NCBI GenBank assembly: GCA_052327205.1
Contig: CM126203.1
Location: forward strand, 153,078,001-153,142,000
Source of the DNA: Somniosus microcephalus
Taxonomy: Eukaryota
Length of the DNA: 64,000 nucleotides
Direction of reading: 5' to 3'
Part shown: positions 3,009-64,000 of the stretch, piece after piece
Position numbering within the stretch: position 1 is the stretch's first letter
Layout: each line of letters begins with the position of its first letter
Position numbers and translations under genes: made by a program
Notes under the pieces: model-generated
Seen by the model: only the letters and a program-made list of their open reading frames with translations
Database searches by the model: none
Told to the model about the DNA's origin: nothing

Positions 3009-3081
3009 TAATTTTGAAAAATGAGAGCCTATTGTGTGTTGGCCCTACAACATGCATAACGTTACATTTATGTGTTATTTG

Positions 3082-36555: not shown

Positions 36556-39507
36556 TCATGTCCAAATTCCTGCCCGCTCCCCGTAACCCTTAATTCCCTT
36601 TACTTCTAGGAAACTGTCTATTTCTGTTTTAAATTTATGTAATGATGTAGCTTCTACAGCTTTTTGGGGCAGCATATTCCATGGACCTACCACCCTCTGA
36701 GTGAAGTAGTTCCTCCTCATCTCAGTTTTGAAAGAGCAGCCCCTTATTCTAAGACTATGCCCCCTAGTTCTAGTTTCACCCATCATCGGGAACATCTTCC
36801 CCGCATCCACCCGATCCAATCCCTTCACAATCTTATATGTTTCAATAAGATCGCCTCTCATTCTTCTGAACTCCAATGAGTAGAGTCCCAATCTACTCAA
36901 CCTCTCCTCATATGTCCATCCCCTCATCCCCGGGATTAACCGAGTGAACCTTCTTTGTACTGACTCGAGAGCAAGTATGTCCTTTCTTAAGTATGGACAC
37001 CAAAACTGTATGCAGTATTCCAGGTGCGGTCTCACCAATACCTTGTACAACTGAAGCAATACCTCCCTATTTTTATATTCTATCCCCCTAGCAATGAAAG
37101 CCAACATTCCATTGGCCTTCTTAATCACTTGCTGCACCTGCATACTAACCTTTTGAGTTTCATGCACCAGGACCCCCAGATCCCTTTGTACTTCAGTACT
37201 TTCCAGTTTCTTGCCATTAAGATAATAACTTGCTCTACGATTTTTCCTGCCAAAGTGCATAACCTCACACTTTCCAGTATTGTATTCCATCTGCCAAATC
37301 TCTGCCCACTTACTTAGCCTGTCTATGTTCCCTTGCAGGTTTTTTATGTCCTCCTCACTCACTACTTTCCCTCCCATCTTAGTATCATCTGCAAACTTTG
37401 ATATGTTACACTCGGTCCCCTCCTCCAAATCATTAATATAGATTGTAAAGAGTTGGGGACCCAGCACTGACCCCTGCGGAACACCACTAGTTACTGATTG
37501 CCAGTCTGAGAATGAACCATTTATCCCAACTCTCTGCCTTCTGTTAGATAGCCAATCCTGTATCCATGCCAGAATATTACCCCCAATCCTGTGATTTTTT
37601 ATCTTAAGCAATAATCTTTTGTGTGGCACCTTGTCAAATGCCTTTTGGAAATCTAAATACACTACGTCCACTGGTTCCCCTTTATCCACCCTATATGTTA
37701 CTTCCTCAAAGAACTCCAGCAAATTTGTCAAACATGACTTCCCCTTCATAAAACCATGCTGACTTTGTCCTATTAAATTATGATTATCCAAATGTCCTGT
37801 TACTGTCTCCTTAATAATGGACTCCAAAATTTTACCTACCACAGATGTTAGGCTAACCGGTCTATAGTTTCCAGCCTTCTGTCTACTGTCCTTTTTAAAT
37901 AAGGGTGTTACATTAGCAGTTTTCCAGTCTGCCGGGACCTTTGCCGAGTCCAGGGAGTTTTGGAAAATTATTACCAATGCATCCACAATCCCTACCGCCA
38001 CTTCCCTCAAGACCCTAGGATATAAGCCATCAGGTCCAGGTGATTTATCCGCCTTGAGTCCCATTATTTTACTGAGTACCACTTTCTTCATGATTTTGAT
38101 CGTATTTAGCTCCTCCCCCACTTTAGCCCCCTGTTTGTCTAGTGTTGGGATATTCTTAGTGTCTTCTACTGTAAAGACTGATGTAAAATATTCATTCAGT
38201 GTTTTTGCCATCTCCATATTTCCCACCATTAATTTTCCGGTCTCATCCTCTAAGGGACCAACATTTACTTTAGCCACCCTTTTTCTTTTTATATAACTAT
38301 ATAAACTCTTACTATCTGTTTTTATATTTTTTGCTAATTTACCTTTACAATCTATCTTCCCTTTCTTAATCAATCTTTTTGTTATTTTTTGCTGTCTTTT
38401 AAGGTTTACCCAATCCTCTATCTTCCCACTAGATTTGGCTACCTTATATGCCCTTGCTTTTAGTCGAATACAATCCTTAATTTCTTTACTTAGCCACGGA
38501 TGGCTGTCTTTTCTTTTACACCCTTTTCTTCTCAGTGGAATATATTTTTTTTGGAAGTTGTAAAATAACTCCTTAAATGTACACCACTGATCATGTATCG
38601 TCTTACCCTTTAATCTATTTTCCCAATCCACTCTACTCAATTCCGCTCTCATACCTTCATAGTCTCCTTTATTCAAGCTTAGCACGCTTGTTTGAGATCC
38701 AACCTTCTCACCCTCTAGTTGAATATGGAATTCAACCATGTTATGGTCACTCATTCCAAGGGGATCCTTTACTAGGACATTTTTAATTAATCCTGTCTCG
38801 TTACACAGGACCAGACCCAAGGTTGCTTGCCCCCTGGTCAGTTCAGTTACATACTGCTCAAGAAACCCATCCCTAATACACTCAATGAACTCATCCTCAA
38901 GGCAGCCCTGCCCAATTTGATTTGTCCAATTAATATGATAGTTAAAATCCCCCATAATTATAGATGTTCCCTTGTCACAAGCCTCAACTATTTCCTGATT
39001 GATACTCCGTCCAACAGAGTTGCCACTGTTCGGAGGCCTATAGACTACGCCCACTAGTGTTTTTTTCCCCTTATTATTCCTTACCTCCACCCAAACTGTT
39101 TCATTATCCTGATCTTTTGACCCAATATCATTTCTCTGTATTACAGTGATTCCTTCCTTTATTAACATAGCCACCCCACCTCCCCTTCCTTCCTGCCTGT
39201 CCTTCCTGATCATTAAATAACCTGGTATGTTTAATTCCCAGGCATTGTCACCCTGCAGCCATGTTTCTGTAATGGCCACAAGATCATACCCATATGTAGT
39301 TATTTGTGCCATTAACTCGTCTATTTTGTTACGAATGCTACGTGCATTCAGATAGAGAACTTTCAAATATGTTTTGTGACACTTAGTTCCTGCTTTTGCC
39401 CTTTTTATTACTTTACCTTTTACTCCATACCTTCTGCCCCTTCCTGACACACTCTGGTTTTTAATTTCCCCACTGCTACCTAAGTCTATGACCTTCTCTG
39501 TTGTCAT
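36556..39507 (-). CDS. CR1 ORF2p, APE endonuclease + RT, uninterrupted (983 aa)
   Basis: YLNARS, ITETW, GDFN, LGL (normally LDL), SDH, PQGSVLGP, FADD. Confidence 0.95.
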   Translation of the reverse strand: MTTEKVIDLGSSGEIKNQSVSGRGRRYGVKGKVIKRAKAGTKCHKTYLKVLYLNARSIRNKIDELMAQITTYGYDLVAITETWLQGDNAWELNIPGYLMIRKDRQEGRGGGVAMLIKEGITVIQRNDIGSKDQDNETVWVEVRNNKGKKTLVGVVYRPPNSGNSVGRSINQEIVEACDKGTSIIMGDFNYHINWTNQIGQGCLEDEFIECIRDGFLEQYVTELTRGQATLGLVLCNETGLIKNVLVKDPLGMSDHNMVEFHIQLEGEKVGSQTSVLSLNKGDYEGMRAELSRVDWENRLKGKTIHDQWCTFKELFYNFQKKYIPLRRKGCKRKDSHPWLSKEIKDCIRLKARAYKVAKSSGKIEDWVNLKRQQKITKRLIKKGKIDCKGKLAKNIKTDSKSLYSYIKRKRVAKVNVGPLEDETGKLMVGNMEMAKTLNEYFTSVFTVEDTKNIPTLDKQGAKVGEELNTIKIMKKVVLSKIMGLKADKSPGPDGLYPRVLREVAVGIVDALVIIFQNSLDSAKVPADWKTANVTPLFKKDSRQKAGNYRPVSLTSVVGKILESIIKETVTGHLDNHNLIGQSQHGFMKGKSCLTNLLEFFEEVTYRVDKGEPVDVVYLDFQKAFDKVPHKRLLLKIKNHRIGGNILAWIQDWLSNRRQRVGINGSFSDWQSVTSGVPQGSVLGPQLFTIYINDLEEGTECNISKFADDTKMGGKVVSEEDIKNLQGNIDRLSKWAEIWQMEYNTGKCEVMHFGRKNRRASYYLNGKKLESTEVQRDLGVLVHETQKVSMQVQQVIKKANGMLAFIARGIEYKNREVLLQLYKVLVRPHLEYCIQFWCPYLRKDILALESVQRRFTRLIPGMRGWTYEERLSRLGLYSLEFRRMRGDLIETYKIVKGLDRVDAGKMFPMMGETRTRGHSLRIRGCSFKTEMRRNYFTQRVVGPWNMLPQKAVEATSLHKFKTEIDSFLEVKGIKGYGERAGIWT

Positions 39508-39545
39508 TTTTATTATTTGCTCTCTAGGAACCTCCCCCCCACTAG

Positions 39546-40502
39546 TTAGTTTAAAGCCCTCTCTACGGCCCTAGTTATATGATCCGCCAGGACTCTAGTC
39601 CCAGCACTGGCCAAGTAAAGCCCGTCCCAACGGAACAGCTCCCTCCTGCCCCAGTACTGGTGCCAGTGTCCCAGGAAGCAAAACCCATTTCTCCCACACC
39701 AGCCTTTGAGCCACGCATTTAACTCTCTAATTTTATTTGTCCCAGCCAAATTCGCTCGTGGCTCAGGTAATAATCCAGAGATTATTACCCTTGTGGTTCT
39801 GCTTTTTAATTTGGCCCCTAGCTGCTCAAACTCCCTCAGCAGAACCTCCTTCCTTGTCCTATCTATGTCGTTGGTACCAACATGGACCACGACAACTGGA
39901 TCCCCCCCCTCCCACTCCAAGTTTCTCTCCAGCCCAGAGGAGATGTCCTTAACCCTGGCACCGGGCAGGCAACACAGCCTTCGGGACTCTCGCTCTCGGC
40001 TGCAAAGAACTCTATCTATCCCCCTAACGATACTATCCCCTACCACTACAACATTTCTTTTAACTCCCCCCACTTGAATGGCCCCCTGCTCCACGGTGCT
40101 GTGGTCAGGTTGCTCATCCTCCCCGCAGTCCCTGTTCCCATCCTCACAGGGTGTAAGAGCCTCGAACCTGTTGGACAGGTGCAAGGGCTGCGGCTCCTCC
40201 AACACTACCTCCTGGATCCCCGTACCTGCCTCACTTCTAGTCACACCATCCTGACCCTGGCCACGGACTACATCTGAATTAATTAATCTAATTGGTGTGA
40301 ATACCTCGTGATACACAGAGTCCAGGTAACTCTCCCCCTCCCTGATGTGTCTCAGTGTTTGAAGCTCGGACTCCAGCTCTTCAACACGGAGCCGGAGTTC
40401 CTCGAGCAGCCAACACTTACTGCAAATGTGATCACCGTGAGCATCAATGGTGTTCACCAGCTCCCACATATTGCAGCAGCAACACATCGCCTGATCTCCC
40501 AT
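39546..40502 (-). CDS. CR1 ORF1p (zinc finger/zipper + SGNH esterase)
   Basis: CCCC...HICSKC, zipper LRLRVEELESEL, GDS, GTND, DGLY (normally DGLH). Confidence 0.92.
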   Translation of the reverse strand: MGDQAMCCCCNMWELVNTIDAHGDHICSKCWLLEELRLRVEELESELQTLRHIREGESYLDSVYHEVFTPIRLINSDVVRGQGQDGVTRSEAGTGIQEVVLEEPQPLHLSNRFEALTPCEDGNRDCGEDEQPDHSTVEQGAIQVGGVKRNVVVVGDSIVRGIDRVLCSRERESRRLCCLPGARVKDISSGLERNLEWEGGDPVVVVHVGTNDIDRTRKEVLLREFEQLGAKLKSRTTRVIISGLLPEPRANLAGTNKIRELNAWLKGWCGRNGFCFLGHWHQYWGRRELFRWDGLYLASAGTRVLADHITRAVERALN

Positions 40503-40725
40503 TCTATGTAATTAATTACATTTATTAATATTATTCTTAAATACCCTCTGCCTCGATTCTAGATGGTGAATATCACACCTTAGAAACTATAAACCAAAGA
40601 GATTTAAGCTTAAAAAGGGAGAAATACTCACCAACCAATCACTTACCCGCTTTCTGGTGACGTCACACTTGGATTACTTTTTACCTCTCTCCTTCCCTCC
40701 GAGTTCCCAGACCGGAGACTGGTAC

Positions 40726-41311
40726 GCCTTACCTGGGCTCTGGGGCTTTTATAGCCCCGCTCTGCCGCTCAGGATTCCCGCCGACGCTGCGAGGCCTTAC
40801 CTGGTCTCTGGGGACTTTTATACCCCGCTCTGCCGCTCAGGTTTCCCGCCGACGCTGTGAGGCCTTACCTGGTCTCTGGGACTTTTATACCCCGCTCTGC
40901 CGCTCAGGATTCCCGCCGACGCTGCGAGGCCTTACCTGGGTCTCTGGGACTTTTATAGCCCCGCTCTGCTGCTCAGGATTCCCGCCGACGCACTGAGGCC
41001 TTGCCTGGTCTCTGGGGCCTTTTATAGCCCCGCTCTGCCGCTCAGGATTCCCGCCGACGCTGTGAGGCCTTACCTGGGTCTCTGGGACTTTTATAGCCCC
41101 GCTCTGCCGCTCAGGATTCCCGCCGATGCTGTGAGGCCTTGCCTGGTCTCTGGGGCCTTTTATAGCCCCGCTCTGCCGCTCAGGATTCCCGCCGACGCTG
41201 TGAGGCCTTACCTGGGTCTCTGGGACTTTTATAGCCCCGCTCTGCCGCTCAGGATTCCCGCCGATGCTGTGAGGCCTTACTTGGGTCTCTGGGACTTTTA
41301 TAGCCCCGCTC
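40726..41311 (-). promoter_or_regulatory. CR1-E 5' UTR tandem monomers (~68-69 bp x ~8.5)
   Basis: Sense unit CAGCGTCGGCGGGAATCCTGAGCGGCAGAGCGGGGCTATAAAAGTCCCAGAGACCCAGGTAAGGCCTC contains TATAAAAG and CAG|GTAAG. Promoter function is inferred. Confidence 0.7.
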
Positions 41312-41428
41312 TGGGGTTGTGGGGCTGGAGGAGATTACAGATAGGGAGGGGCGAGGCCATGGAGCAATTTGAAAACAAGACTGAGAATTTTGAAATCGAG
41401 GCATTGCTTAACCGGGAGCCAATGTAGG

Positions 41429-42203
41429 TGTACGAAAAGCTGATATTTAAAGATATTTGGTAGATGAGAATCATATATGTATAATTTAAGTGTAGCCATT
41501 GACCAAATAATATTACCCATAATTACTCCTGGGTAACTAGAACGCTAAGACTTGTTCAAAATGTAACTGCAGACAGTTCAAAAGCAGTTTTGACTAAGTT
41601 TTGATAACAAACAGCCACAGACTGCAAGTGAAGGTCAGATCATTAAATTGCTAAGAGAAACATAATGGCCCAGAAATTCGGGTCCCAACACATGAGTACG
41701 CACGGGGTACTCATGCGTGGACCCGATGGAAGTGCCGGTTTCTTGCATGCACTACGCATGCGCGGGAAACCGGCACTTCCGATCCTCTGAACGAAGGGGT
41801 TCAGAGGTCGAACGCGTGCGCACAGGAGTGGCCAGGTTACCAGCCCTAACCTGAGTGACAATGGTATTTTGACCATTAGAACCAATTAAAAAAGGTAATT
41901 TTGTTATATATGGACACTGGCCAACCAAACTGTTGATAAGGAATGGTTTAAAACCTCGATATTCAAACAACAGTTTCACACAGAGTTTTGCTGCGAGAAT
42001 AAGGAACAGACCTGCGACGACGTTGCCTGTGTCCGAAGGGCTCCAGAGACCAAGGGCTGCGAGCTATTTGTTACTATCGCCTAATGTTAAGTATTGATTA
42101 CGCTGTAAGCTTAATAAATCTGATCTATTGCTCAAACATACTGGCTGCTGCCCAATTGTGTCTTGTCCAAGTACTCTGAGTGGTCATTACTGATTGACTC
42201 ACA
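41429..42203 (+). repeat. 5' LTR (internally deleted; carries a MITE fragment)
   Basis: ~41502-41663 and 41824-42203 closely match the 3' LTR; AATAAA near the end; ends in CTCACA. Confidence 0.92.
41667..41823. mobile_element. Harbinger-type MITE left-end fragment inside the 5' LTR
   Basis: Begins GGCCCAGAAATT (compare the TIR at 5103); absent from the 3' LTR; made of three hairpins. Confidence 0.75.
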
Positions 42204-42206
42204 GTC

Positions 42207-42224
42207 TGGCACCCCAGATGGGAT
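42207..42224 (+). other. Primer binding site, tRNA-Arg(CCT)-like
   Basis: TGGCACCCCAGATGGGA lies 3 nt after the LTR and is complementary to the 3' end of vertebrate tRNA-Arg(CCT) as I recall it. Confidence 0.75.
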
Positions 42225-42380
42225 GAGACAAAGTGGCTAGTATTGTGTAATAGACCAGACCTCGAGAGTAGCCTCCTGATCAGCTGCTTCTCTTGGGGAG
42301 GGATAACCCTTCGTGGGGAGAGCCCGTGAATTGTGCGCTGATAGTTATAGATGTTAGAGGTCTGTTAAGAAAACAACAAG

Positions 42381-44230
42381 ATGACTAATAAAAGTTTTGT
42401 TAACACGTATAAGAATAAGTTAGACAGAGGTGCCTGTGAGGAGGAAGTACAGGTACTATTGACGGAATGTTTATGCAAAGGAGAACGAGTCCCCTTTGAC
42501 GAACTGATAAACTTTATTCATGAACGTGTGGATCTAAGAAAGATTAAAAGTGATAAGGCAACTCGGCTACTCGCCTATGCAGTATTTTACTGTGCTCAAA
42601 GATGTGATGAGTACTGTAAGAAACAACGTAAAGAGATAGAAGAGCTAAGAGCACAACACAATGAGTCAAAAGAAAAACATAGGCAGGAGATAGAGGACTT
42701 AAGGAAGCAGCAAGATCTGGAGGTGGAAGACCTAAAAAGAAAGCAGGTTCAGGAAGTGGGAGATTTGAAAAAGTGAATTATTGACTTAGAGAGCCAAACC
42801 TCTCAAGCTGCAGTAGTTCTGCAATAACAAAGCGTGTGTGCAGTCCAGGCAGGAAGCGTTATACATGAACTAGAAGAAACCAAACAGGCGTTACAATCTT
42901 GTGAGATAGAGAGGGAGGACCTTACACATGATTTTCAAGATGCCAGCGGCGCCTTGAGGGAAGCTCTCCAGGGCCCTGATAGAGAGACGGATCACACTCA
43001 GTGTAGGTTGAAGATATACGAACTAGAGGGAAAGCTGGGAAAAGCAGGCTGTTGTGGCTGCTGTTACTGCCAGATCGTATGATTCAGCAGTGGGAGCAGC
43101 AGGAGGAGGAGAAATGATAGACTGGGATGCACTAGAAGGCAAGACATATCAGCACGGTCGACATGATGGTTGGGGAGACCCCGGGGTGTCCTCCATCCAT
43201 GAGGAGAGGCAGTCGACCCTTGTGAGTGTCATAGTTAGAACCCAGACCTATGATGACAAGGGGGAGGAAACCACCTCCGAGAAGCGCACCGTTCCCCTCA
43301 ATGCTGCCGAAGTACAAGCTTGTGTTAATGAATTAGGCCCCATAACAGTATCCGAGTGCCCCCATCGACGTTAAAGTTCGATGGACTGCTTGGAAGTGGG
43401 GACACAACGAATTAGAGGACGCCGATTTGAAACGCGTCCTCCTTGCTTCCACCAACCCCAAGATACGGCAAAATCTTCCGTTCCTGATTTTTAATATTGG
43501 CACTACCTCGAGAGTAGTGATGGAGTCCATTCAGGAACAGTTAGGCATTAACAGCATGGATATGGCTAAAAAATGTTATCAAACAACACAGGGACCAGTA
43601 GAATCACCCACTGTATACAGTGATAGGTGCTACACGGTTTATGGGGGAACCCAAGGGGTTGCTCCTGACTCCAAAGACGAAGGGAAGGACCAGGTACCAT
43701 TCAAGAAACAATTCTTGAATGGCTTGCAAAGCTCATTGAGGCATGCTGTAGGACACACGGTCTCACCTGTGACTGAGTGGCCTGAACTACTCCAGACCAC
43801 CAATCGGGCATGGACTTTTGCAAGGGAGGGGTGTAAGCCAAACAAAACTGTTAGTGTGGTAGAAAAAACTGTCAACGTGGAAGAAAAACCTGTTAGTGTG
43901 GTAGAAGGGCCAGTTATGCCCACTGCACCCCCTACACACGTCGATTAGAAGGAAATTGTTACAATTGTGGGAGACCTGGGCACTATTCTAAATTTTGTAA
44001 GAAACCTCGAAGACAGGGCCAACGGTACCCTCTCTTTCAAGGAAATCTACCCCCACCACCACCAATAATATCCGCTGATCCCCTGGAGACCAAGGTAGAT
44101 CAATTGGCCGGAGAAATGAGTAAAATAACAGCCATACTGAACACCCACCCTGTTACAAGAGCTAATCGGGTGGCGGCCATCTCGGATCCGGCTGGACGAC
44201 AGCCACAGGGATCCCAGGCATCGGCCCAGT
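42381..44230 (+). pseudogene. gag: gag-like gene (coiled-coil N-terminus, CCHC knuckle), disrupted
   Basis: ORF pieces 42381-42776, 42834-43082, 43054-43374, 43427-43948; CYNCGRPGHYSKFC at 43957-43998. Confidence 0.85.
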
Positions 44231-45770
44231 TAAGGGGACGGGCCCCCTCTTGGTCGGAAGTGGGGTTCCGACATGATGTTAACGGGCGACCGGAAATTTT
44301 GGTTGCTCTACCGGGGGGCCGACAACAAATCATGCTTATTAACACCGGTTCATCCGTTACCATCATCCATACCCCACATCCTGAACACCATGCTGCGGCG
44401 GGCAAGGGCTGCTTGACATTACAAGGCTTTGATGGGAGGTCAACCTCTGCTTTTAAGGGAGAAATGATAACTATGCGCACAAACGGGATTGATTTGAATG
44501 TTGATGACCCTGTTTTGATGACAACTCCTGATGGAAGGGGTATATTGGGAAGTGATGTTTTGGAAAGTTACGGGACAATTATTGATTACAACCAGAGGTG
44601 TATTTGGATCGGGACAGGAGGTAGTGAATTGGTTGAAATATCGGATGCCCACTCCGTATTTGCGATTAAGAGGACTTGCTTGTACGAGGCACTAGATCAC
44701 ACAGATGAGCGAGTCAAAGTATTAATTCAAACGCACTCACCCACATTCGCCACTGGTAAGCATGACTGCGGTCGAATGGAGGGTGAGGAGATGATTAATG
44801 GCCTGCCCCACTCCTTTATTAAACAGTACCCAATTCCCAAAGAAAGTCATCCCTATATTAGAGGTGTCATTGATACCCTCTTAAAACAGGGCATTCTGAG
44901 AACAGGCACTTTCACGACCAATTCACCAGCTTGGCCGGTTCGGAAGCCGGACAATAGCTGGAGGCTCACTATTGATTACCGAAGTCTTAACAAGGTTACG
45001 CCCAAGAGCGCCCCTATTGGTTAGGATGCTCCAACCTTATTATCAGACCTCCCAAAAGACTCTAAATACTACTCCACCCTAGACATTGCGAATGGCTTTT
45101 GGAGTATTCCCGTCAGAACAGAGGATTAATATAAATTTGCTTTCACCTTTGAGGACCAGAGTTACACGCGGACATGCCTACCCCAAGGCTTCCACAATGC
45201 CCCGACCATTTTCCATACCAGAATGGTACAGATCCTGAAAGCTTTTTCTAAGCCCCAATGTCTGCTTCAGTATGTCGATGACTTGCTACTGGCTACTAGT
45301 ACAATCGAAGAACACCTTGAACTGTTAGATGAACTTTTAACACTGTTAAGCAGTACAGGCTTGAAAATTAACCCTCGAAAAGCTCAGCCTTTGCAGGAAC
45401 AGGTCACCTATTTGGGAGTGACAATCTCACTGCAGGGTCTAAGTCCTGACGAGCACAAGATAGAGGTCATTCAACGACTCCCGCTTCCTGTATCCAGGAC
45501 AGCGCTCCGATCGTTTTTGGGACTAGTGGGATACCAGCGTAGTTTTATTCCTGGATTTGCAGAACTTGTAAAGCCCCTCTATGAACTGTTAAAAGGAAAA
45601 GAGGATCAAATTTCCTCCTTGTGGGGGTCAGATCACACCGCTGCAGTTAAGAAATTGAAACAGGCTGTTATGCAGGTTACCTGTTTGATATCACCCAACC
45701 CGACACAGCCATTCCATCTCGAGGTCGCATCCACCGACTATAGTCTGACTGCGGTGCTATGTCAAGAACG
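44231..45770 (+). pseudogene. pol: pol (protease, RT, start of connection/tether), truncated
   Basis: LINTGS (DTG decayed), ILGSD, GKHDCG, NSPAWPVRKPDNSWRLTIDYR, LDIANGFWS, LPQGFHNAP, QYVDD, FHLEVAST; two in-frame stops. Confidence 0.92.
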
Positions 45771-45912
45771 ACAGCAGGTCCGGCCGCATCTGTGTAGAGA
45801 GAACAAGCCAATGTCGACTCGAGTCTGGATGACCCTGCGTCAGGTGGGGTTACATGTAGCATGACATGAACCCAAGATCTCGGTTGAGGCCGTCCTCATG
45901 GGTGCGGAACTT

Positions 45913-47506
45913 CTACTCGTGGGCGACTTCTACTGCCTCCCAATGATACACAAAGCCAACACACCCGGATGTCCTGTCGTATCAGGCAACGGAACCCTGT
46001 GTGAGAACCTCTCTGGATATGTCGAGGGCATCCTGAAACCCATCGTACAGGGAACCCCCAGCTTCTGTCGCGACACTACAGACTTCTTACAGAAACTCAG
46101 CACCCACGGACCAGTTGAACCAGGAACACTCCTCGCCACGATGGACATCTCGGCACTCTACACCAGTATCCCCCACGATGACGGCATCGCTGCGACAGCC
46201 TCAGTACTCAACACCAGCAACAGCCAATCTCCAGACGCCATCCTACAACTCATCCACTTCATCCTTGACCACAATGTCTTCACCTTCGACAACCAGCTCT
46301 TTACCCAAACACACGGAACAGCCATGGGGACCAAATTCGCACCCCAATACGCAAACATCTTCATGCACAAGTTCGAGCAAGACTTCTTCGCTGCACAGGA
46401 TCTTCAGCCAACGCTATACACCAGATACATCGATGACATTTTCTTCCTATGGACCCACGGTGAGGAATCACTGAAAAGACTACACGATAACATCAACAAG
46501 TTCCATCCCACCATCAAACTCACCATGGACTACTCCTCAGAATCGGTTTCATTCTTGGACACACGAATGTCCATCAAAGACGGACACCTCAGCACTTCAC
46601 TCTACCGCAAGCCCACAGACAACCTCACGATGCTTCACTTCTCCAGCTTCCACCCTAACCACGTTAAAGAAGCCATCCCCTATGGACAAGCCCTGCGAAT
46701 ACACAGGATCTGCTCAGATGAGGAGGAATGCGATGGACACCTACAGACACTGAAAGATGCCCTTGTAAGAACGGGATATGACGCTCGACTCGTCGATCGA
46801 CAGTTCCGACGGGTCACAGCGAAAAATCGCATAGACCTCCTCAGAAGACAAACACGGGACACAACCAACAGAGTATCCTTCGTCGTCCAGTACTTCCTCG
46901 GAGCGGAGAAACTACGCCATGTTCTTCGCAGCCTTCAACATGTCATCGATGACGACGAACACCTCGCTAAGGCCATCCCCACGCCTCCACTACTCGCTTT
47001 CAAAAAGCCGCCTAACCTCAAACAGACCATCGTTCGCAGCAAATTACCCAGCTTTCAGGAGAACAGCGACCACGACACCACACAACCCTGCCACAGCAAC
47101 CTCTGCAAGACATGCCAGATCATCAACACAGATACCATCATCACACGAGGACACCACCCACCAGGTACATGGTACATACTCATGTGACTCGGCCAACATT
47201 GTCTACCTCATACGTTGCAGGAAAGGATGCCCCGGAGCATGGTACATCAGCGAGACCATGCAGACACTGCGACAACGGATGAACGGACACCGCGCAACAA
47301 TCACCAGGCAGGAGTGTTCCCTCCCAGTCGGGGAACACTTCAGCAGTCAAGGACATTCAGCCTCCGATCTTCGGGTAAGCATTCTCCAAGGCGGCCTTTG
47401 AGACACACGACAACGCAAAATCGTCGAGCAGAAACTGATAGCCAAGTTCCGCACCCATGAGGACGGCCTCAACCGAGATCTTGGGTTCATGTCACGCTAC
47501 ATGTAA
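45913..47506 (+). pseudogene. Penelope RT + Cys linker + GIY-YIG endonuclease (frameshift near 47145, stop at 47399-47401)
   Basis: FYCLPMIHK, MDISALYTSIP, GTAMG, RYIDDIF, CHSNLCKTC, NIVYLIRC...YISET...RMNGH. Confidence 0.93.
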
Positions 47507-47826
47507 CCCCACCTGACGCAGGGTCATCCAGACTCGAGTCGACATTGGCTTGTTCTCTCTACACAGATGCGGCCGGACCTGCTGTGATTTCCAGCAAAAA
47601 AAAAAATGTTTCTTGTCTGTTTTTTTGTTTTTCATACAGACCCCAGCATCTGCATGTTCTTTGATGTAATGTTTTCCTGACTGACCTGTTTGGACACCAT
47701 TCACACCTTTGATTGCTGTGATTATCTCTCTGCTGAGGTGTGATAAATGGCAGTTGGAAAGTTACCTGTAAACATCTGACATTATTCTCTGACTATATAA
47801 GCTGTGCCTTTATGCATTTCTCCACT

Positions 47827-47863
47827 TCACCTGACGAAGGAGCAGCGCTCCGAAAGCTTGTGA
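47827..47863 (+). ncRNA. Minimal type I hammerhead ribozyme
   Basis: TCAC-CTGACGA-A-GGAGC(AGC)GCTCC-GAAA-GCTT-GTGA: helix I TCAC/GTGA, helix II GGAGC/GCTCC, palindromic AAGCTT helix III. Confidence 0.85.
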
Positions 47864-47911
47864 TTTCAAATAAAGCTGTTGGACTATAACCTGGTGTTGT
47901 GTGACTTCTTA

Positions 47912-48775
47912 CAAATAATATTGCCCATAATTACTCCTGGGTAACTAGAATGCTAAGACTTGTTCAAAATGTAACTGCAGACAGTTCAAAATCAGTTTTG
48001 ACTAAGTTTTGATAACAAACAGCCACAGACTGCAAGTGAAGGTCAGATCATTAAATTGCTAAGAGAAACATATTATAATGCTGTTAGAACTTAGAATTCG
48101 CTGAACAAAACTAATTGCAACAATATTTAAAGGATAATTAGTATAAATTCCAATAAATGAGAGAGATCATGCAAGTTAAGGTATTTTTCTGGTAGATTAA
48201 AGTGAGATAGTCTGGATACATCAAGACTAGTGAAACAGCGCTGAAATGATCTGGGCCCTTGGTGTAGAGAAAGGCCTTGTACTGCTTGAGGCATGAAATG
48301 AAAGAGATATGGTAAATTCCAATGGGGTAAAAAGCTATAAACAAGATAACACGACAGCAGAACAGGGTTAATGGAAATGTACTGGAAAAGGAGTGGCCAG
48401 GTTACCAGCCTTAACCTGAGTGACAATGGTATTTTGACCATTAGAACCAATTAAAAAAGGTAATTTTGTTAAAGACCATATATGGACACTGGCCAACCAA
48501 ACTATTGATAAGGAATGGGTTAAAACCTCGATATTCAAACAACAGTTTCACACAGAGTTTTGCTGCGAGGATAAGGAACAGACCTGCGACGACATTGCCT
48601 GTGTCCGAAGGGCTCCAGAGACCAAGGGCTGCGAGCTATTCGTTACTATCGCCTAATGTTAAGTATTGATTACGTTGTAAGCTTAATAAATCTGATCTAT
48701 TGCTCAAACATACTGACTGCTGCCTATTTGTGTCTTGTCCAAGAACTCTGAGCGGTCATTACCGGTTGACTCACA
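47912..48775 (+). repeat. 3' LTR lacking its first ~73 bp
   Basis: Matches the 5' LTR from ~41502 onward and retains ~315 bp that the 5' LTR lacks. Confidence 0.92.
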
Positions 48776-48776
48776 T

Positions 48777-50310
48777 AGAAGGCTGGAAACTAGCCTAACA
48801 TCTGTGGTAGGTAAAATTTTGGAGTCCATTATTAAGGAGACAGTAACAGGACATTTGGATAATCATAATTTAATAGGACAAAGTCAGCATGGTTTTATGA
48901 AGGGGAAGTCATGTTTGACAAATTTGCTGGAGTTCTTTGAGGAAGTAACATATAGGGTGGATAAAGGGGAACCAGTGGATGTAGTGTATTTAGACTTCCA
49001 AAAGGCATTTGACAAGGTGCCACACAAAAGATTTTTGCTTAAGATAAAAAATCACGGGATTGGGGGTAATATTCTGGCATGGATAGAGGATTGGCTATCT
49101 AACAGAAGGCAGAGAGTTGGGATAAATGGTTCATTCTCAGACTGGCAATCAGTAACTAGTGGTGTTCCGCAGGGGTCAGTGCTGGGTCCCCAACTCTTTA
49201 CAATCTATATTAACGATTTGGAGGAGGGGACCGAGTGTAACATATCAAAGTTTGCAGATGATACTAAGATGGGAGGGAAAGTAGTGAGTGAGGACATAAA
49301 AAACCTGCAAGGGGACATAGACAGGCTAAGTAAGTGGGCAGAGATTTGGCAGATGGAATACAATACTGGAAAGTGTGAGGTTATGCACTTTGGCAGGAAA
49401 AATCGTAGAGCAAGTTATTATCTTAATGGCAAGAAACTGGAAAGTACTGAAGTACAAAGGGATCTGGGGGTCCTGGTGCACGAAACTCAAAAGGTTAGTA
49501 TGCAGGTGCAGCAAGTGATTAAGAAGGCCAATGGAATGTTGGCTTTCATTGCTAGGGGGATAGAATATAAAAATAGGGAGGTATTGCTTCAGTTGTACAA
49601 GGTATTGGTGAGACCGCACCTGGAATACTGCATACAATTTTGGTGTCCATACTTAAGAAAAGACATACTTGCTCTCGAGTCAGTACAAAGAAGGTTCACT
49701 TGGTTAATCCCAGGGATGAGGGGATGGACATATGAGGAGAGGTTGAGTAGATTGGGTCTCTACTCATTGGAGTTCAGAAGAATGAGAGGCGATCTTATTG
49801 AAACATATAAGATTGTGAAGGGTGGATGCGGGGAGGATGTTCCCGATGATGGGTGAAACTAGAACTAGGGGGCATAGTCTTAGAATAAGGGGCTGCTCTT
49901 TCAAAACTGAGATGAGGAGGAACTACTTCACTCAGAGGGTGGTAGGTCCATGGAATATGCTGCCCCAAAAAGCTGTAGAAGCTACATCATTACATAAATT
50001 TAAAACAGAAATAGACAGTTTCCTAGAAGTAAAGGGAATTAAGGGTTACGGGGAGCGGGCAGGAATTTGGACATGAGTCTAGGTTCAGATCGGTCATGGC
50101 CCTGTGGGTAGCGGAGCGGGCCCAGGGGCCGTGTAGCCCGATCCTGCTCCTATTTCGTGTGTCTAATTCTGTTAGATTCAGGAGATGGTTCTGTGATAGT
50201 AGATTGGCGGTTAGGATCAGATCAGCCATGATCTTATTGAATGGTGGAGCAGGCTCGAGGGGCCGATTGGCCTACTCCTGCTCCTATTTCTTATGTTCTT
50301 ATGTTCTTAT
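48777..50310 (+). mobile_element. 5'-truncated CR1 (CR1-F), near-identical to the CR1-E 3' part
   Basis: RT ORF aligns almost residue for residue with CR1-E ORF2; same duplicated 3' UTR. Confidence 0.95.
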
Positions 50311-51937
50311 GTCAGTGAGCACAGGGGTGATGGATGAATGGGACTTGGTGTGAGTTAGGACATGGGCAGCCGAGTTTTGGATGACCTCAAGTTTACGTAA
50401 GGTAGAATGTGGGAGGCCAGCCATGTGGGAGTGCATTGGAATAGTCAAGTATAGAGGTAACAAAGGCATGGATGAGGGTTTCAGCAGCAGATGAGCTGAG
50501 GCAGGGGTGGAGATGGGCAATGTTACAGAGGTGGAAATAGGCGGTCTTAGTTATGCCACAAATGTGCGGTCAGAAGCTCATTTCAGGGTCAAATATGACA
50601 CCAAGGTTGAGAAAAGTGTGGTTCAGCCTCAGACAGATGTTAGGGAGAGGGATGGAGTCAGTGGCTAAGGAACGGAGTTTGTGGCGGGGACCAAAAACAA
50701 TGGCTTCAGTCTTCCCAATATTTAATTGGAGAAAATTTCTGCTCATCCTATACTGAATGTTGGACAAGCAGTCTGCAAATGTTGAGACCGTGGAGGGGTC
50801 GAGAGAAGTGGTGGTGAGGTAGAGCTGGGTGTTGTCAGCGTATATGTGGAAACTGACGCTGTGTTTTCGGATGATGTCGCCAAGGGACAGCATGTCGATG
50901 AGAAATAGGAGGGGACCAAGGATAGATCCTTGGGGGACACCAGAGATAACGATGTGGGAGTGGGAAGCGAAGCCGTTGCAGGTGATTCTCTGGCTACAAT
51001 TAGATAGTTAAGAATGGAACCAAGCAAGTGCAGTCCCACCCAGCTGGACGACGGTGGGGAATCGTTGGAGAAGGATGGAGTGGTCAACCGTGTCAAAGGC
51101 TGCAGATAAATCGAGGAGGACGAGGAGGGATGGTTTACCTTTGTCACAGTCACAAAGGATGTCATTTGTGACTTTGATGAGAGCTGTTTCGGTACTGTGG
51201 CTGGGGCGGAAACCTGATTGGAGGGATTCAAGCATGGAGTTCCAGGAAAGGTGGACACAGATTTGCGAGACGACAGCACGTTCAAAGGCTTTGGAGGGGA
51301 AAGGGAGGTTGGCGATGGGGCGGTAGTTTACAAGGACGGAGGGGTCAAGGGTTGTTTTTTTGAGGAGAGGGTTAGGGTTAGATTTGAAGGAGAGGGGGAC
51401 AGTACCCGAGGAGAGAGAACCGTTAACAATGTCAGCTAACAAAGGCCAATAATAAGGGATGTCTTTGCTCATATAAACCAAAGGCATCTACTGTGCTTTT
51501 CTGACAATTTAATGAAGGTACTTTAAGAACATCTTTAATTTCTTTATTTTGTGAAACAATTCAATGCATTTTATTTTCAAAGAGTCGTTGTTTACAGCAA
51601 TCCAGGATACCAACCGAGAGAAGTTGCATTATTTATGGAGACAAATACTTGCTTTAGATCTCTGTAACTACATAATTCCAATGCATTAATCCTATTTTAG
51701 ACCTATTTGGAGCTATTTTAGAAACCAATGCTTTATTTTGCTAGTTTTATGCAACATACACTGTAGTTCATTTCATTACGAACAGTTCCATATTTTTAAA
51801 TCACATGGAGAGATCGATATTTGTGCATTCAAGGTATTTATTTTGTAGTGCAAAGGTGGGATAGATATCTAGATTAATTACATCGGTAAATTGGTACTGC
51901 AATGGATTCTAAGGTCCATATTTTCCTCTTTACGGTT

Positions 51938-52439: not shown

Positions 52440-55400
52440 CATCAGCAGCCAGTGAAATGCCATCATGTGCATAATGGTAACGTTACCCATTCTACTATAA
52501 CACTTCTAATTCATCTCTTTACTCTCCCACAGGTCCATCAAGTGCCCCCCCCCCCAACTGTCCAGCCAGAGGAGGAAGACGACTCCTCAGAGGAAGCACC
52601 AGCCTCTGAGGGTGCACCACCAGCAGACCCAAGCGCACCCAGCACCATCGCAGATACTCACACCTCAGTGGGTCCTGTGCGCCATATAGTGTTGTCACCT
52701 GGTGTCTCACAATTCACAAGTGAGCAAGAGCAGATGGTGTTGACATGGACAGCAGTGGAGAGTCCTCACCGGAGGGTGCAGGATGCTCCAAGCTCTGCTG
52801 AGCTGCATGCAGGCGCTGAGCCTCGGGGGCCATCGAGAAAGAGGGTGATCTTGGAGGGACAGCAACAATTGCATGAGGCTCTGGCAGCTTTTGCAATCGC
52901 AAATGTGCCAAGAATGGAGGAGTTCATCTCATCTGGAACAAAAGCATCACCATGTCACAAGCGATGGCGACGATGTGGTGTTCCATGGAAAGTATGGCTA
53001 CCTGTATGGAGCAGCTAATGCGCCAGTCACAAGAGCACATGGTAGCTGTGGACATCAGATGGCAGGTGCTCATAGACCTCCTCTCTAGGAGGAATATAAA
53101 CGTAGACTTGGGCATTCATCGCCCCACTGATGTGCAGCAAGGTGCTCGCCAGCTCCTTGCTAGCAGGGAAGTGCGGGTGGCCCATGAGAGGGATGATGGT
53201 GAGAGGGGATGTGGAAGTGGGGGCTCTTCTCAAAGCGCTCCCACTTCTTCCCCATTGCCTCCCCCTCAGTCAGAGTTCTACATGCTTCCTCGGATCCTGA
53301 TGGCCAAGTCTGCCCCTGCACAGTCGCAGGAGGAGCAGACTTTGGCGGGGCCATCACAGGCCCTAAACCTCAGAGGACGTCTGCCAAAAGTGTCTAATGA
53401 GTCACAGCAGTGAAGTGAGCAGCCTGCCTCTACCTCCGCTGAAGCCACAGGGGTTGCACCTCGAAGAAGCACACAGAAAAGGAAATGACACAGAAGTAGA
53501 TGCACAAGGGATGCACATGGGTGTACAAAAAATGTTAGTGTTAAGTTTCAGTTATTCTGATGACACAGATAAATGTTTTTCTTTGCACCACTTTCGGGTC
53601 TTGTCATTTTTGCCTCAAACCTTGGAAGTGGCCTTGTCACTTGGAGTGAATGATGAAACATTACTTAGCCTCAAGCAATGGGGGTTTGGGTGAGAGGAAT
53701 GGCTTGGTTATTGTAGGGATGCTTTATGGTGCTGTTGGGTGGGGGGGTGGGGGGGCTTAGTACAGCATGTGGCAGCCATGTGGCTGCATTGGAGCAAGTT
53801 AAGTAGATCTGGCCATGATGAGGCCATCCCGGGCCTTCTGCGAAGCAATGTGCGCCGCTGCTGCTGCCATCTCCACCTCACGTTCATCCTCTTCCTCCTC
53901 CTCCTGCTCCTCTGAAGAGACTGTGCGCTCTGTGCCTTGCTCCTCCTGCAGCTCCAATCCTCGCTGCTGCACTATGTTGTGCAGTGTGCAGCAAACGACA
54001 ATGATTCTGGAGACCCTGGCTGGTGCATACTGAAGGGCACCTCCAGATCTGTCAAGGCATCTGAAGCGCATCTTCAGCATGCCTATTGCTTGCTCTATGA
54101 CACATCTGGTGGTGATGTGGCTCTCATTATAATGCTCCTTAGCCTCAATACCTGGCATTCTCAAGGGTGTCATGAGCCACATCTTCAGTAGATAGCTCTT
54201 GTCTCCCAACAGCCAGCTGGTAAGTCTGTTTGGAGGTGTGAATAGCTGAGGGAGGGTGGACTGGCGCAGCACGAAAGAGTCATGACAGCTGCCAGAGAAT
54301 CTGGGACACACATGCATGATGATCTTTTTATGGTTGCAGACGAGCTGCACATTGAGGGAGTGGAAGACCTTGCGGTTCACAAACACTCCTGGGTGATGTG
54401 GGGGTGCCTTGACGGCCACATGGGTGCAGTCGATGATGCCCTGCCCCTGTGGGAAGTTAACCAGAGCCATAAAGCCGAGCGCCCGCTCAGTAACACTGGC
54501 TTCATCAGTGGTAAAGTTCACATAATTGGCTGACTTGTCAAATGTGGCATCGGTCACCTGGGTGATGCATCTGTGGGCTGCCGACTGCGAGATCCTGCAA
54601 ATATCTGCTGCAGATCCCTGGAAGGAGCCTGAGGTGAAGAAGTTGAGGGTGGTGGTGACTTTGACAAACACTGGTAAGGAGTGTCCACCAGGTCCTCTGG
54701 GCATCAGGTCTTGTTCCAGTAAGCTACAAATTTTTGAGATGACCTGGCGCAATAGCCTGAGCCTCCTGAAGCACCGCTGCTCAGTCATGTCATCCTCTGC
54801 CTGTATACCCTGTGTTGGGGGTATCGCCTCCAGTGCGCTGCAGCCCTGTGCTGACCCCCTCTCTCCTGTGCAGCATCAGGTCATTGAGGAGAAGGCTGCT
54901 GCTGCTGCTGCTGCTTCTTGTGTGGCTGGTGTTGTTGGTGCTGGGGCTCATCTTGGGATAATTCTAGGGTCAAAGGTGAGGCAGTATAAGCGGCACCCAT
55001 GCTGATGTAATAGATGGCAGGTAAAGTGGAGATCAGCGTCCCAATCCCTCAATGTTGTGATAGTGACTAGCAATGTGGTGAGAGTGGTTTCCGAGGTTTC
55101 AGAAATGACCTGCAAATGGCTGATAACCAAACCTGTGGAAAAATGAAGTGAGCAAGAGCCTTTCCCTGAGGCAAGTAATCAAGTGTAATGTTGGAGTTTT
55201 TTGTGCTTTTCCCAGCTCTGAATGAATGAACTCGCCAATGGCCACTGAGCTTCTGCCTCCCCTTCACAGGCAAGGTACCCGAGCTCCGTGAATCCAGTGC
55301 TCCTGCAGTTAAAGTCAAAAACTGGTGTTAAAAACACTCAGAAGGGTCTCTCAACAAGCAGTTGATGACTTCAATGCAGTCGCCTGCCTCTGCCGATCGG

Positions 55401-60276: not shown

Positions 60277-61874
60277 ATGGAGAGGGCCAGGGAGCGAGCA
60301 CAGTGCTTCTGCGTGCGGGCCTTGGAGGCTCTGGTTGACGCGGTGGAGCGCAGAAGATCCATTCTGTACCCAGAGAGTGGCAGGAGGCCTTTGCCACGTG
60401 AGTACAGAAGAGTGTGGAGGGAGGTGGCTCAGAGAGTCTGCTCAAGCAGCATGGTGCCTAGGACCCATCTCCAATGTAGGAAAAAGTTCACCGACCTCAC
60501 TCAGGTCGTCAGGGTGAGTGCCTTTTTTCAAAACCTCTTCATCCCTCCATCTCAACCTCACTTTATTGCCAGAGGGTCTTGAAAGCCCCAGTGCCCAACT
60601 CTCATCCAACACCTATGGCCCTTTCATCAAACACACACGCACATTCCACACTTTGCATACAGTAAGGGCTATTTAACCATGGGAGGCATTTCAGGCAAGA
60701 CCATGGCTGCATACAGTAAGGGCTATTCAACCATGGGAGGCATTTCAGGCAAGACCATGACTGCATACAGTAAGGGCTAATCAACCATATTCCACTTGTT
60801 CCTCACAACAGCAGCCTTTGACACTTTCAATCCAAATCACTAAATCGCTGCACTCATGCCTCCCTTGCTGCCACCCTGTCCTCACGCTAAAGCCACTCTT
60901 GTACCTCCCTGCTTTCAGATGGTGATTCCCCAGGTGAGGAGATGGGCCCTCAAGCTGCCAGTGGGAGTGAAGCTGAAGGCGAGGAGGAAGAGGAAGCCGG
61001 ACCATCAGCGCCACCTTCTACCGAGGCAGCCCATGCCTACACTGGGAACACGCTTTCCCAGGAGGGGAGCAGGGGGGAAGGGTCTGATGAGGGTGAAGCT
61101 CCAGGACCCAGCGGGCTACAGCAACGCGATGGGGGTAGGGAAGCTTGGGGGCCTTCTCCCCGGAGGGAGAGTATGGCTTCGAGTCCTGCTGCACTGGACG
61201 CAGAGGAGGAGTGGATCCTCGCTGAAATGAGCGCCCAGGCGGAGCACAGGCACACTGAGCTCATGGCTGCAGTGGCAAGGTTGCCCGAATCCACTGAATC
61301 ACTGGCAAGGAGTGTGGAGCACTTCGCTGTAGCACAGGCGGCTGCCACGCAAATGCTTAGTGCTGCAATGCAGTCAGTGGCTGGTCTCATGCAGACGCAG
61401 ATTGAGGCCACGCGAGCACTGACTGCTGCCACCCTCGCTGGATCGGGCACATTTCCCCGGGGCTCTCACCGCGCCGCAGCAGGCCAGCAATCTGTGCTCC
61501 AGCAGATTGCTCCGGATGCTGAAGTGCTGCCCCGTGGGAGTGCCAGTGTGTCGGTCGAGCAGGGAGTTGCTGTCCTCTCTCAAGATGACAGCATTCCTGC
61601 TGCCACCACTGGCACTTCTCCACTGCAGTTGCCACCACCTGTAGGTCAGACTGCTGCCGCCCATGCAGAGTTGGTGCAGTCTGCAGCCGGGCCCTCCAGG
61701 CCCAGAGCTGGTCCAGGCTGTCCCTCAAGGGCATCTGCAGTCTCAGTTTCTGACAATCAGCAGAAGTCCCCCAGCCTTGCTCCAGCCACTGGGGTCCCAT
61801 TACAGAGGAGCTGCAGGGTGGGAAGGGGGGAATTTCGCACAGGAAGGAGATCACCCTCGAAGGGCAAAAAGTAG
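60277..61874 (+). CDS. Harbinger Myb/SANT-like DNA-binding protein (exons 60277-60513 and 60919-61874)
   Basis: ALEALVDAVERRRSILYP...WREVAQRV...QCRKKFTDL; donor AGG|GTGAGT; acceptor CTTTCAG; low-complexity C-terminus with a basic tail. Exon phases do not match. Confidence 0.8.
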
Positions 61875-62993: not shown

Positions 62994-64000
62994 ATGGCTA
63001 CTATATTAGGAAACATCGGTGATTTTGATGAAAATGTGGAGCAATGGAGCGCTTATACGGAACGTTTTGACTATTTTGTCTTGGCGAATGCGGTGGCAAA
63101 CGAAAGGGTCGTGCCTACCTTTTTGAGTGTAATGGGGCCGAAGACATTCAATTTACTTCGCAGCCTTGTGCAGCCAGATAAGCCAGGAACTAAGACATAT
63201 AAGCAACCGGTGGAAATTCTTGGAGCACATTTTTCACCAAAACCTCTGGTGATTGCTGAGAGATTTAGATTTCACAAACGGAATCAAGAGGAGGGGGAAT
63301 CAGTGATGATGTTTATTGCTGTTTTAAAAAGGTTGTCGGAACACTGCCAGTTCAAGGAGGTGCTGAATGACACCATTAGAAACAGACTTGTGTGTGGTCT
63401 GCAAAGTGCAGCCACACAGAAGCGCCTTCTCACTGAGGACAACCTTACTCTTGAAAAGGCCATTGGAGTTAGTGTCTCCATGGAGATGGCGGAAAAGGAG
63501 GCTCACCAGTTGAGTTCAACAGGGAGAGTTCACAAGGTGTCGTCTGAGTCTAAAGGTGCGCGGAACGGCACATGTTACCATTGTGGGAAAACGGGCCATC
63601 ACGCTAATGACTGCTGGTGTACGGAGCTGGAATGCCGAAATTGTGGCAAAAAGGGTCACATTGAACGCGCCTGTAGAGGTAAAAAAAGAACAGACAGAGC
63701 TGGGAAGCTTGGAAGCAAAATGTCTGTATTTGGACAAGCGAGGAAAAAGAGTGTTCATTCAGTGCAGTATGATGGAACAAGCAAAACAGAGGGGAGCGAC
63801 ACCTCTGAGGAGGAAGAGGTGCACATACTGATGGTTGCAGGTGGTTCAAATGGCTACTGGGTGTCACCACTGGTGGAGGGACAACCAGTACGGATGGAGG
63901 TGGACACAGGCGCGGCTGTGTCCCTTGTTTCAGACACTGACTACAACAAAATGCTAAAGCATCTTACACTTCAGCCAACAAACATTGTGCTAAAGACGTA
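62994..64000 (+). CDS. gag: Gypsy (Mag-like) Gag-protease, open to the window end
   Basis: My translation from ATG 62994: QWSAYTERF, AERFRFHKRNQEEGESV, two CCHC knuckles CYHCGKTGHHANDC and CRNCGKKGHIERAC, protease VDTGAAVS. Absent from the ORF track because there is no stop in the window. Confidence 0.93.
   Translation, partial: MATILGNIGDFDENVEQWSAYTERFDYFVLANAVANERVVPTFLSVMGPKTFNLLRSLVQPDKPGTKTYKQPVEILGAHFSPKPLVIAERFRFHKRNQEEGESVMMFIAVLKRLSEHCQFKEVLNDTIRNRLVCGLQSAATQKRLLTEDNLTLEKAIGVSVSMEMAEKEAHQLSSTGRVHKVSSESKGARNGTCYHCGKTGHHANDCWCTELECRNCGKKGHIERACRGKKRTDRAGKLGSKMSVFGQARKKSVHSVQYDGTSKTEGSDTSEEEEVHILMVAGGSNGYWVSPLVEGQPVRMEVDTGAAVSLVSDTDYNKMLKHLTLQPTNIVLKT

Follow-up and report, generated by a model that had tools for sequence, protein, structure and literature searches.

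A defective, probably SnRV-like endogenous retrovirus with later nested insertions in the genome of Somniosus microcephalus

Identity of the provirus

Positions 41429-48775 of the window (the whole 64,000-nucleotide stretch of DNA analysed here) hold a real provirus, with TG..CA LTRs, a primer binding site (PBS), gag, protease-reverse transcriptase (PR-RT) and the start of an RNase H tether all present. We regard it with considerable confidence as a defective endogenous retrovirus (ERV) whose RT falls within the canonical retroviruses and which is likely SnRV-like (clade Huo, or class III), the integrase and any env being missing from this copy. The copy is incapable of replicating by itself now. 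It likely represents a new family within the known SnRV-like ERV group, which has already been published from the elephant shark. The sequence-only reading had proposed a poorly described basal family, and this was overstated, since a complete elephant-shark relative with a conventional env was published in 2015 (PMC4422223). The exact family was not found described in the open literature; it may be catalogued in Repbase or Dfam.

LTRs, target site and primer binding site

The 5' LTR (41429-42203, + strand) starts with TGT, ends with ACA, and forms a direct repeat with the 3' LTR (47912-48775, + strand), apart from an internal replacement described below. The 3' LTR also ends with ACA and lacks its first 75 nt at the 5' side; adding these to the 864 nt present gives 939 nt, in agreement with the ~0.94 kb estimated in the sequence-only reading. 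The divergence of the LTR pair, which had been proposed there as a further measurement, is 3.1% over 541 sites; an age estimate depends strongly on the rate assumed (7 versus 73 Myr).

The left copy of the target site duplication (TSD), TAGG (41425-41428, + strand), lies within an L2-type LINE on the - strand. On the right side the order is TAG, the first three bases of the other copy (48776-48778, + strand), then a 5'-truncated CR1 LINE (48777-50311, + strand), and the host LINE again from 50312, with the fourth base merging with the CR1 tail at 50311. The 4-bp TSD claimed before is real, and it is not visible as an exact pair because the later CR1 split the right copy. Uninterrupted copies of the LINE occur in all four of the four runs, where the left-flank sequence runs on into that at position 50312. 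The TG..CA ends and the 4-bp TSD show an integrase-type insertion into an older L2 LINE.

A PBS was likewise confirmed, as 18 nt starting with TGG (42207-42224, + strand) after a 3-nt spacer; it is presumably of the tRNA-Arg type. The tRNA scan of the 64-kb window returned no genes, and a literature search found no paper with the PBS string. The layout LTR-PBS-gag-pro-RT-tether indicates a tRNA-primed element.

Gag

The gag region (42381-44256, + strand) spans ~625 codons from the ATG at 42381 to the protease start, close to the ~600 codons with a coiled coil and one CCHC knuckle described from the letters alone. Its reading is broken by two in-frame stops (42774 and 42825) and three frameshifts (near 43030-43080, 43346-43374 and 43897-43948). 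The N-terminal part is coiled-coil-like and rich in E, K, Q, R and L (52%), and the protein also has an IDWD motif, a capsid C-terminal region and a single CCHC knuckle (43957-43998). SnRV (L001, 10,688 nt) encodes a Gag of 625 residues in which a coiled coil, IDWD, the matching capsid C-terminal region and a single knuckle succeed one another as they do here; the pieces of the element are collinear with it, and homology between the two Gag proteins was found.

Among 458 proteins, SnRV Gag is the sole match of more than 100 residues to the gag region, with three further weak matches outside the knuckle (E 0.002-0.008). The capsid piece scores 90 against SnRV, versus a shuffle maximum of 60 (none of 200 as high), and 36-53 against six other retroviral first ORFs. 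For the IDWD piece 1 of 200 shuffles was as high, and the N-terminal pieces are at chance level or weak (equalled in 59 and 5 of 200 shuffles). A word-based search with the capsid piece matched none of 782 candidates; in ESM Atlas the leads from this piece stayed below 0.9 and pointed to retrotransposon Gag and caulimovirus coat clusters, and the N-terminal Gag piece gave nothing usable.

Protease, reverse transcriptase and tether

The protease region with its linker (44257-44750, + strand) is in frame with the Gag knuckle, and its alignment to SnRV Pol begins at residue 12. The active site, near 44335-44350, carries a defective motif. In SnRV a stop separates gag from pol, but the element's copy can be read across this junction in frame. 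The RT and connection follow (44751-45711, + strand), with GKHDCG at 44755 and YVDD at 45271. The five RT motifs previously listed (GKHDCG, NSPAWPVRKPD, DIANGFWS, LPQGFHN and YVDD), and FHLEVAST after them, are all present and share one frame, which is interrupted by two in-frame stops (45022 and 45127).

The tether start (FHLEVAST..., 45712-45770, + strand) comprises the first ~20 codons and matches positions 1-51 of the 100 of Pfam RT_RNaseH_2. A Penelope-like insertion cuts the tether at this point, hence a single strand motif carries the tether claim for this copy; the remainder is seen in full-length relatives, where a second RNase H comes after the tether. The best long homologues, from Xenopus (52%), one other protein (50%), Latimeria (46%) and two frogs (45%), all carry RT_RNaseH, RNase_H and integrase. 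The Pols of Xenopus tropicalis (P0002), Latimeria (P0004) and frogs (P0005, P0006 and P0092) are 45-52% identical to the element from the protease to the tether start and show the same tether motif; they come from other hosts and are intact, with RNase H and integrase, whereas the element's copy is broken. Databases file the relatives as 'Gypsy retrotransposon integrase-like protein 1' or 'NYNRIN-like'.

The tether had been put forward as a mark of retroviruses. The full-length relatives combine it with a second RNase H. A tether start of the FHLEV type is not discriminating, because Loki-type proteins share it.

Phylogeny of the reverse transcriptase

In an RT tree of 70 rows the element lies inside the canonical-retrovirus branch (100/100), from which Loki (100/100) and Gypsy (100/99) are excluded, and a mixture-model tree of 35 rows also places it in canonical Retroviridae (100/98). 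Both trees were drawn without CmiERV-I, ERV-L, most class II, fish foamy-like ERVs and Odin sequences, and their Loki rows were labelled by the PFGY[AS]NSPA motif and the host, not taken from the published Loki set. The element forms a clade with the Xenopus, Latimeria and frog Pols (95/87 in the 35-row tree; 100/98 with P0002). The comparison with Retroviridae, Loki and Gypsy that the sequence-only reading had proposed puts the element inside the canonical retroviruses (100/100 and 100/98) and outside the Gypsy clade.

Concerning a Gypsy/Metaviridae retrotransposon whose RNase H motif has decayed, the Gypsy and NYNRIN names of the relatives would agree with it, and the tether left in the element is too short to judge alone. 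However, the relatives possess two RNase H-type domains, the TDAS-like strand seen in Gypsy-type rows of a motif survey is absent from both the element and its relatives, and the approximately unbiased (AU) test rejects the placement (p 0.0012); these results reject it, and we give this reading hardly any credence. The earlier claim that the element differs from the two Gypsy copies in the window is borne out by both RT trees, this test and the two RNase H domains of the relatives.

Lokiretroviruses (Wang and Han 2021, PMC7947760) have an RT N-terminal motif similar to that of the element, and a tether plus a second RNase H. They are defined by a Mononegavirales-F-like Env, and the six chondrichthyan assemblies that Wang and Han screened show no Loki mark, so that a lokiretrovirus here would be news, the first from cartilaginous fish. 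WPV.KP...WRLTIDYR and the FHLE-type tether start are indeed in common. However, lokiretroviruses form a separate RT clade (100/100) with palm motifs of their own, PFGY[AS]NSPA and IYVDD, unlike the LPQGFH and LLQYVDD of the element; RT-core identity is 59-63 of 139 positions. With AU p values of 0.00048 and 0.0099 the Loki placement is rejected for the Loki rows used in the trees, and a lokiretroviral identity is extremely improbable. Odin retrotransposons, described in PMC9040795 as having an RT sister to Loki, sea-anemone hosts and no env, seem disfavoured as well, the RT of the element lying inside canonical retroviruses and away from Loki.

By RT-core identity the nearest named virus is SnRV (72 of 139), and the close group reaches 83-89 of 139; the closest stored RT among 431 sequences is P0252. 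SnRV Pol is 36% identical to the element over ~500 residues, shares FAT..[HN]DCG and D[IL].NGFWS, and includes a tether plus a second RNase H; the PBS of SnRV is different. SnRV is exogenous, with env and accessory ORFs, whereas the element is endogenous and any env is gone; Pfam found no fusion-glycoprotein family in SnRV Env.

A foamy-like fish ERV would be consistent with the best PDB matches to the RT N-terminus, which are foamy RTs (E 4e-15), and with the AU test, which does not reject a clade with foamy viruses (p 0.066 and 0.15). No SnRV-like RT is among the PDB matches, so the foamy-first ranking reflects which structures are solved. Only 56 of 139 RT-core positions agree with a foamy virus, fewer than the 72 shared with SnRV or the 83-89 shared with members of the close group; in the Gag of the element there is a CCHC knuckle as well as the match to SnRV, and foamy viruses form a separate clade (100/100, mammalian rows, fish foamy-like ERVs being absent from the trees). 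We consider a foamy-like identity very unlikely.

Neither tree joins the clade of the element with SnRV, the SnRV-like rows forming a basal grade of Retroviridae whose branching order is not resolved. It could be argued that the element and its Xenopus, coelacanth, frog and elephant-shark relatives form a deep lineage of their own among canonical retroviruses, one that branched before SnRV and foamy viruses, the likeness to SnRV being ancestral; in both trees the group branches below SnRV, foamy viruses and class I, at moderately supported nodes (80/91 and 85/85). Against this, the AU test does not reject monophyly with SnRV (p 0.19 and 0.21), Gag is collinear with SnRV Gag, Han 2015 (PMC4422223) puts CmiERV lineage I with SnRV on Pol, and ERV-L, most class II and fish foamy-like rows are absent from the trees that suggest it. 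We consider such a lineage improbable. Of the three affinities first suggested, lokiretrovirus, spuma or SnRV-like, the last fits and the first fails on the AU test and the lack of PFGY[AS]NSPA.

Relationship to CmiERV lineage I

Clade Huo is reported from all major vertebrate lineages (PMC6001957), and coelacanth ERVs are reportedly for the most part SnRV-like (PMC4977317). CmiERV lineage I, on scaffold 2 of Callorhinchus milii, groups with SnRV on Pol (Han 2015, PMC4422223). In a by-eye comparison with that paper's supplement, it shares with the element the motifs HDCG, KES.PY, G.FTTNSP, TALRSFLGLVGY and QPFHLEVA. Both have a coiled-coil Gag, one CCHC, a TG..CA LTR of similar size and a 3-nt spacer before the PBS, and LTR divergence is 0.033 in CmiERV-I versus 0.032 in the element. 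RT-core identity, counted by eye and outside the computed tree, is 89 of 139, equal to the best of the 431 stored sequences, and suggests close kinship of the two elements. About one third of the RT residues differ, which argues for different families; the PBS sequence is another one and, by eye, there is no evident LTR likeness. CmiERV-I retains a second RNase H, an integrase and a gamma-type env with the LQNRMALD / CX6CC transmembrane signature (by eye), whereas the element's copy is without all three.

Distribution and significance

Sequencing-run contigs with related sequence come from at least eight coded organism labels. Of 10 ORFs neighbouring the provirus, an exact look-up in the protein collection recovered none. 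The search for a second copy or a solo LTR within the 64-kb window found none. A metagenome scan found RT relatives in 298 of 517 stretches; among the 80 kept the top identity was 38%, and neither a close copy nor an env context turned up. Viral contigs searched with the single read-through protein gave 18 pattern matches and no relatives.

The ancestor would have had a tether, a second RNase H, an integrase and env, like the full-length relatives, and may have entered the germ line and then multiplied to many copies. As the family is apparently high-copy and common to several host species, orthologous insertions could calibrate the slow neutral rate of sharks and the age of SnRV-like viruses. 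A single defective copy adds little, SnRV-like ERVs being already published from one cartilaginous fish (PMC4422223); the family is of some use to paleovirology, and its RT falls among basal branches of the retroviral tree that are poorly resolved. A bolder proposal, which we think doubtful, is that of a multi-species shark and ray family (at least eight organism labels) in the deepest grade of canonical retroviruses, with uninterrupted copies whose env is unlike the gamma-type env of CmiERV-I. If true, this would record the exchange of an envelope gene within the SnRV-like group and be of help in rooting Retroviridae.

Later insertions

After integration the provirus decayed through stops and frameshifts, and it received three subsequent insertions, in the 5' LTR, in pol and in the right TSD copy. 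The first is a palindrome-rich, MITE-like, non-viral high-copy repeat of 159 nt (41665-41823, no strand assigned), where the 3' LTR has 316 nt (48073-48388); summed contig depth is ~3.0 million over it versus ~27,000-62,000 in downstream LTR bins (run X1).

The second, at 45771-47911 (+ strand), we take to be Penelope-like from its motifs and its inverted arms (45771-45912 and 47444-47585). Its RT ORF occupies 45865-47187, and a GIY-YIG-like C-terminus lies in a shifted frame; Pfam found only RVT_1 in this insertion, and no match in the GIY-YIG-like piece. The insertion stands in the place of the remaining tether and pol, any second RNase H, the integrase, any env and the polypurine tract, and also of the initial 75 nt of the 3' LTR. 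Either its insertion or recombination between two Penelope copies may have deleted ~4 kb. Summed contig depth over it is ~1.2 million versus ~1,200-4,800 inside the provirus (run X1), and in two runs a contig tracks the provirus to 45772 or 45776 and then continues with 88 or 116 non-Penelope letters (records 7 and 30).

The third is the CR1, whose first ~330 nt are 95% identical to a CR1 near 37546-37880. The nesting order (L2, then the ERV, then the repeat, Penelope and CR1) makes the locus a tidy example of nested insertion.

Structure, boundaries and age of the provirus

On the forward strand, the window sequence shows the element opening with TGT at 41429 and closing with ACA at 48775. 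Its left flank, within an L2-type LINE, ends in TAGG, and its right flank starts with TAG followed by a 5'-truncated CR1, which aligns to another CR1 of the window from 48777 on, the LINE picking up again at 50312. Uninterrupted LINE copies, which from 41429 onward carry the sequence that stands at 50312, were found in 4 of the 4 runs examined. The simplest reading is a 4-bp target site duplication, as the sequence-only reading had proposed, with its right copy split by the CR1. The labels L2, CR1 and Penelope are probable ones, given by motifs plus Pfam RVT_1 matches.

The LTRs are marked by two direct repeats in the forward strand, 41504-41664 / 47912-48072 and 41824-42203 / 48389-48775. Since the 3' LTR begins at LTR position 76, the full LTR length is 939 nt, in line with the ~0.94 kb reconstructed earlier. 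In the 5' LTR, 159 nt of palindrome-rich sequence occupy the place of 316 nt in the 3' LTR; contig depth summed over public runs is here ~50-100x that of the downstream LTR bins, so the stretch is a separate repeat. The suggested dating by LTR divergence was carried out: the pair shows 17 differences in 541 aligned sites (13 transitions and 4 transversions; 3.1%, 95% interval 1.8-5.0%; K2P 0.032), corresponding to 73 Myr if the shark rate used in Han 2015 (PMC4422223) is assumed, or to 7 Myr with a mammalian rate, neither rate being derived from this host.

The gag gene, with its ATG at 42381, carries 3 frameshifts and 2 stops, while pol shows a defective protease motif and 2 stops. The tether, the degenerate RNase H that follows RT, stops at 45770, ~20 codons in, and 45771-47911 is taken up by a Penelope-like element whose inverted arms measure 142 nt, so that this copy has no integrase, second RNase H, env or polypurine tract. 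Depth in public run X1 is ~1.2 million for the Penelope-like element, compared with 1,200-4,800 in the interior of the provirus. Runs X1 and X9 each have a contig that tracks the element up to the Penelope junction and then runs on into different sequence, which means that this Penelope is missing from other copies.

Phylogenetic placement of the element

Two RT trees were obtained, the first with 70 rows chosen by hand among stored proteins and ORFs of the loci (269 columns, LG+G4; bootstrap short of full convergence) and the second with 35 rows (363 columns, LG+C20 PMSF). Both place the element within canonical retroviruses, adjoining the stored protein P0252 and Xenopus P0002. Loki (lokiretroviruses), Gypsy, foamy and class I each form a supported clade of their own, and snakehead retrovirus (SnRV) is not joined to the element's clade; the rows exclude ERV-L/S, lenti-, delta- and alpharetroviruses, fish foamy-like ERVs, Odin and published Loki and CmiERV sequences, and a single long beta-like row is in tree 1 only. 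In P0252, the closest stored RT, the RT is followed straight away by a partial RNase H and no tether is matched; it is probably an internally deleted copy.

The best Pol homologues (7,997 scored candidates, 887-2,530 residues) come from Xenopus (52% identity), an unnamed source (50%), Latimeria (46%) and frogs (45%), and all of them carry tether, RNase H and integrase. Further Latimeria, frog and unnamed relatives came from a full HMMER scan, and class I, Gypsy and Loki-type proteins from a profile search. The database names of P0002, P0004, P0005, P0006, P0092 and P0100 (frogs, coelacanth), 'NYNRIN-like' or 'Gypsy retrotransposon integrase-like protein 1', are misleading, since these are retroviral Pol proteins of the element's group.

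AU tests, based on quick 35-row trees, reject the grouping of the element with Loki (p 0.00048, 0.0099) and with Gypsy (p 0.0012), and do not reject that with foamy (p 0.066, 0.15) or with SnRV (p 0.19, 0.21). The features read from the sequence alone are confirmed, and their interpretation is supported in part: of the lokiretrovirus/spuma/SnRV-like options first proposed, the SnRV-like one fits and Loki is not supported; the distinction from Gypsy holds, both by RT phylogeny and by the tether and second RNase H of the full-length relatives. PMC7947760 reports Loki in lampreys, ray-finned and lobe-finned fish, amphibians and reptiles, and shows no Loki mark for six chondrichthyan assemblies.

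On sequence comparison, the tie between SnRV and foamy is broken by the Gag match together with a published shark element, CmiERV lineage I (CmiERV-I) of the elephant shark. Four Gag pieces are collinear with SnRV Gag residues ~200-243, 279-353, 434-529 and 541-602. The capsid piece scores against SnRV above 200 of 200 shuffles and six control ORFs, whereas the knuckle piece scores higher against two control ORFs and is therefore not specific to SnRV. CmiERV-I clusters with SnRV according to Han 2015 (PMC4422223), and its scaffold-2 RT core, translated and counted by eye, shares 89 of 139 residues with the element; over this segment P0252 reaches a computed 89 identities, Xenopus 83, SnRV 72, two Loki rows 63 and 59, foamy 56, MLV-type 51 and Gypsy 47. 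CmiERV-I has the same QPFHLEVA tether start, after which, by eye, come a second RNase H, an integrase and an env whose transmembrane signature is gamma-type. The element is thus a defective endogenous retrovirus, likely SnRV-like and so a further member of a group already described.

Viral collections yielded L001, a 10,688-nt genome agreeing with SnRV in length (PMC12193657) and RT sequence (supplement of PMC7947760). They also gave 11 loci, mostly gamma/epsilon-type, and a pattern search returned 17 matches, 16 of them foamy-type genomes of 11.7-13.2 kb. SnRV Pol (L001 2194-6390) has ~200 extra residues (~790-990) between RNase H and integrase, with no Pfam match; their two H-x-T/S motifs are reminiscent of a 2H phosphoesterase. 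Pfam gave no F-like family match on SnRV Env, and the env of CmiERV-I looks gamma-type; env type may vary within this group.

Distribution in public runs

Part of the gag-pol stretch was found in 20 of the 24 runs listed (shares 0.15-0.38); these belong to 9 studies and are filed under 8 coded organism labels, with fish gut metagenomes in addition. In the four runs examined in detail (organisms A-D) 30 of 30 bins are covered, mostly at 90-99% identity. LTR bins are ~10-20x deeper than interior bins, depth not being copy number, an excess that many solo LTRs would give. Kinship with CmiERV-I, together with a CR1/L2 landscape of shark-like character, makes a cartilaginous fish the probable host.

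Other features of the window

The two other pieces read earlier as Gypsy-type, 49-1134 (integrase) and 63009-63998 (RT), both match Gypsy-type queries in tblastn. Two CR1-type LINEs show long open frames, stop to stop, of 1004 and 321 aa (36556-40511, reverse strand) and of 317 and 980 aa (7877-13139, forward strand). The former matches the beginning of the CR1 fragment at 48777 with 95% identity, which makes its family look young, and upstream of it eight ~69-bp units lie in tandem (40735-41306), probably its 5' UTR repeat. ORFs at 53799-54875 (reverse) and 60891-61874 (forward) may encode a Harbinger-type transposase and a low-complexity partner protein. At 1405-3007, a long low-complexity purine-rich array gives spurious S/P/L-rich ORFs on the reverse strand.
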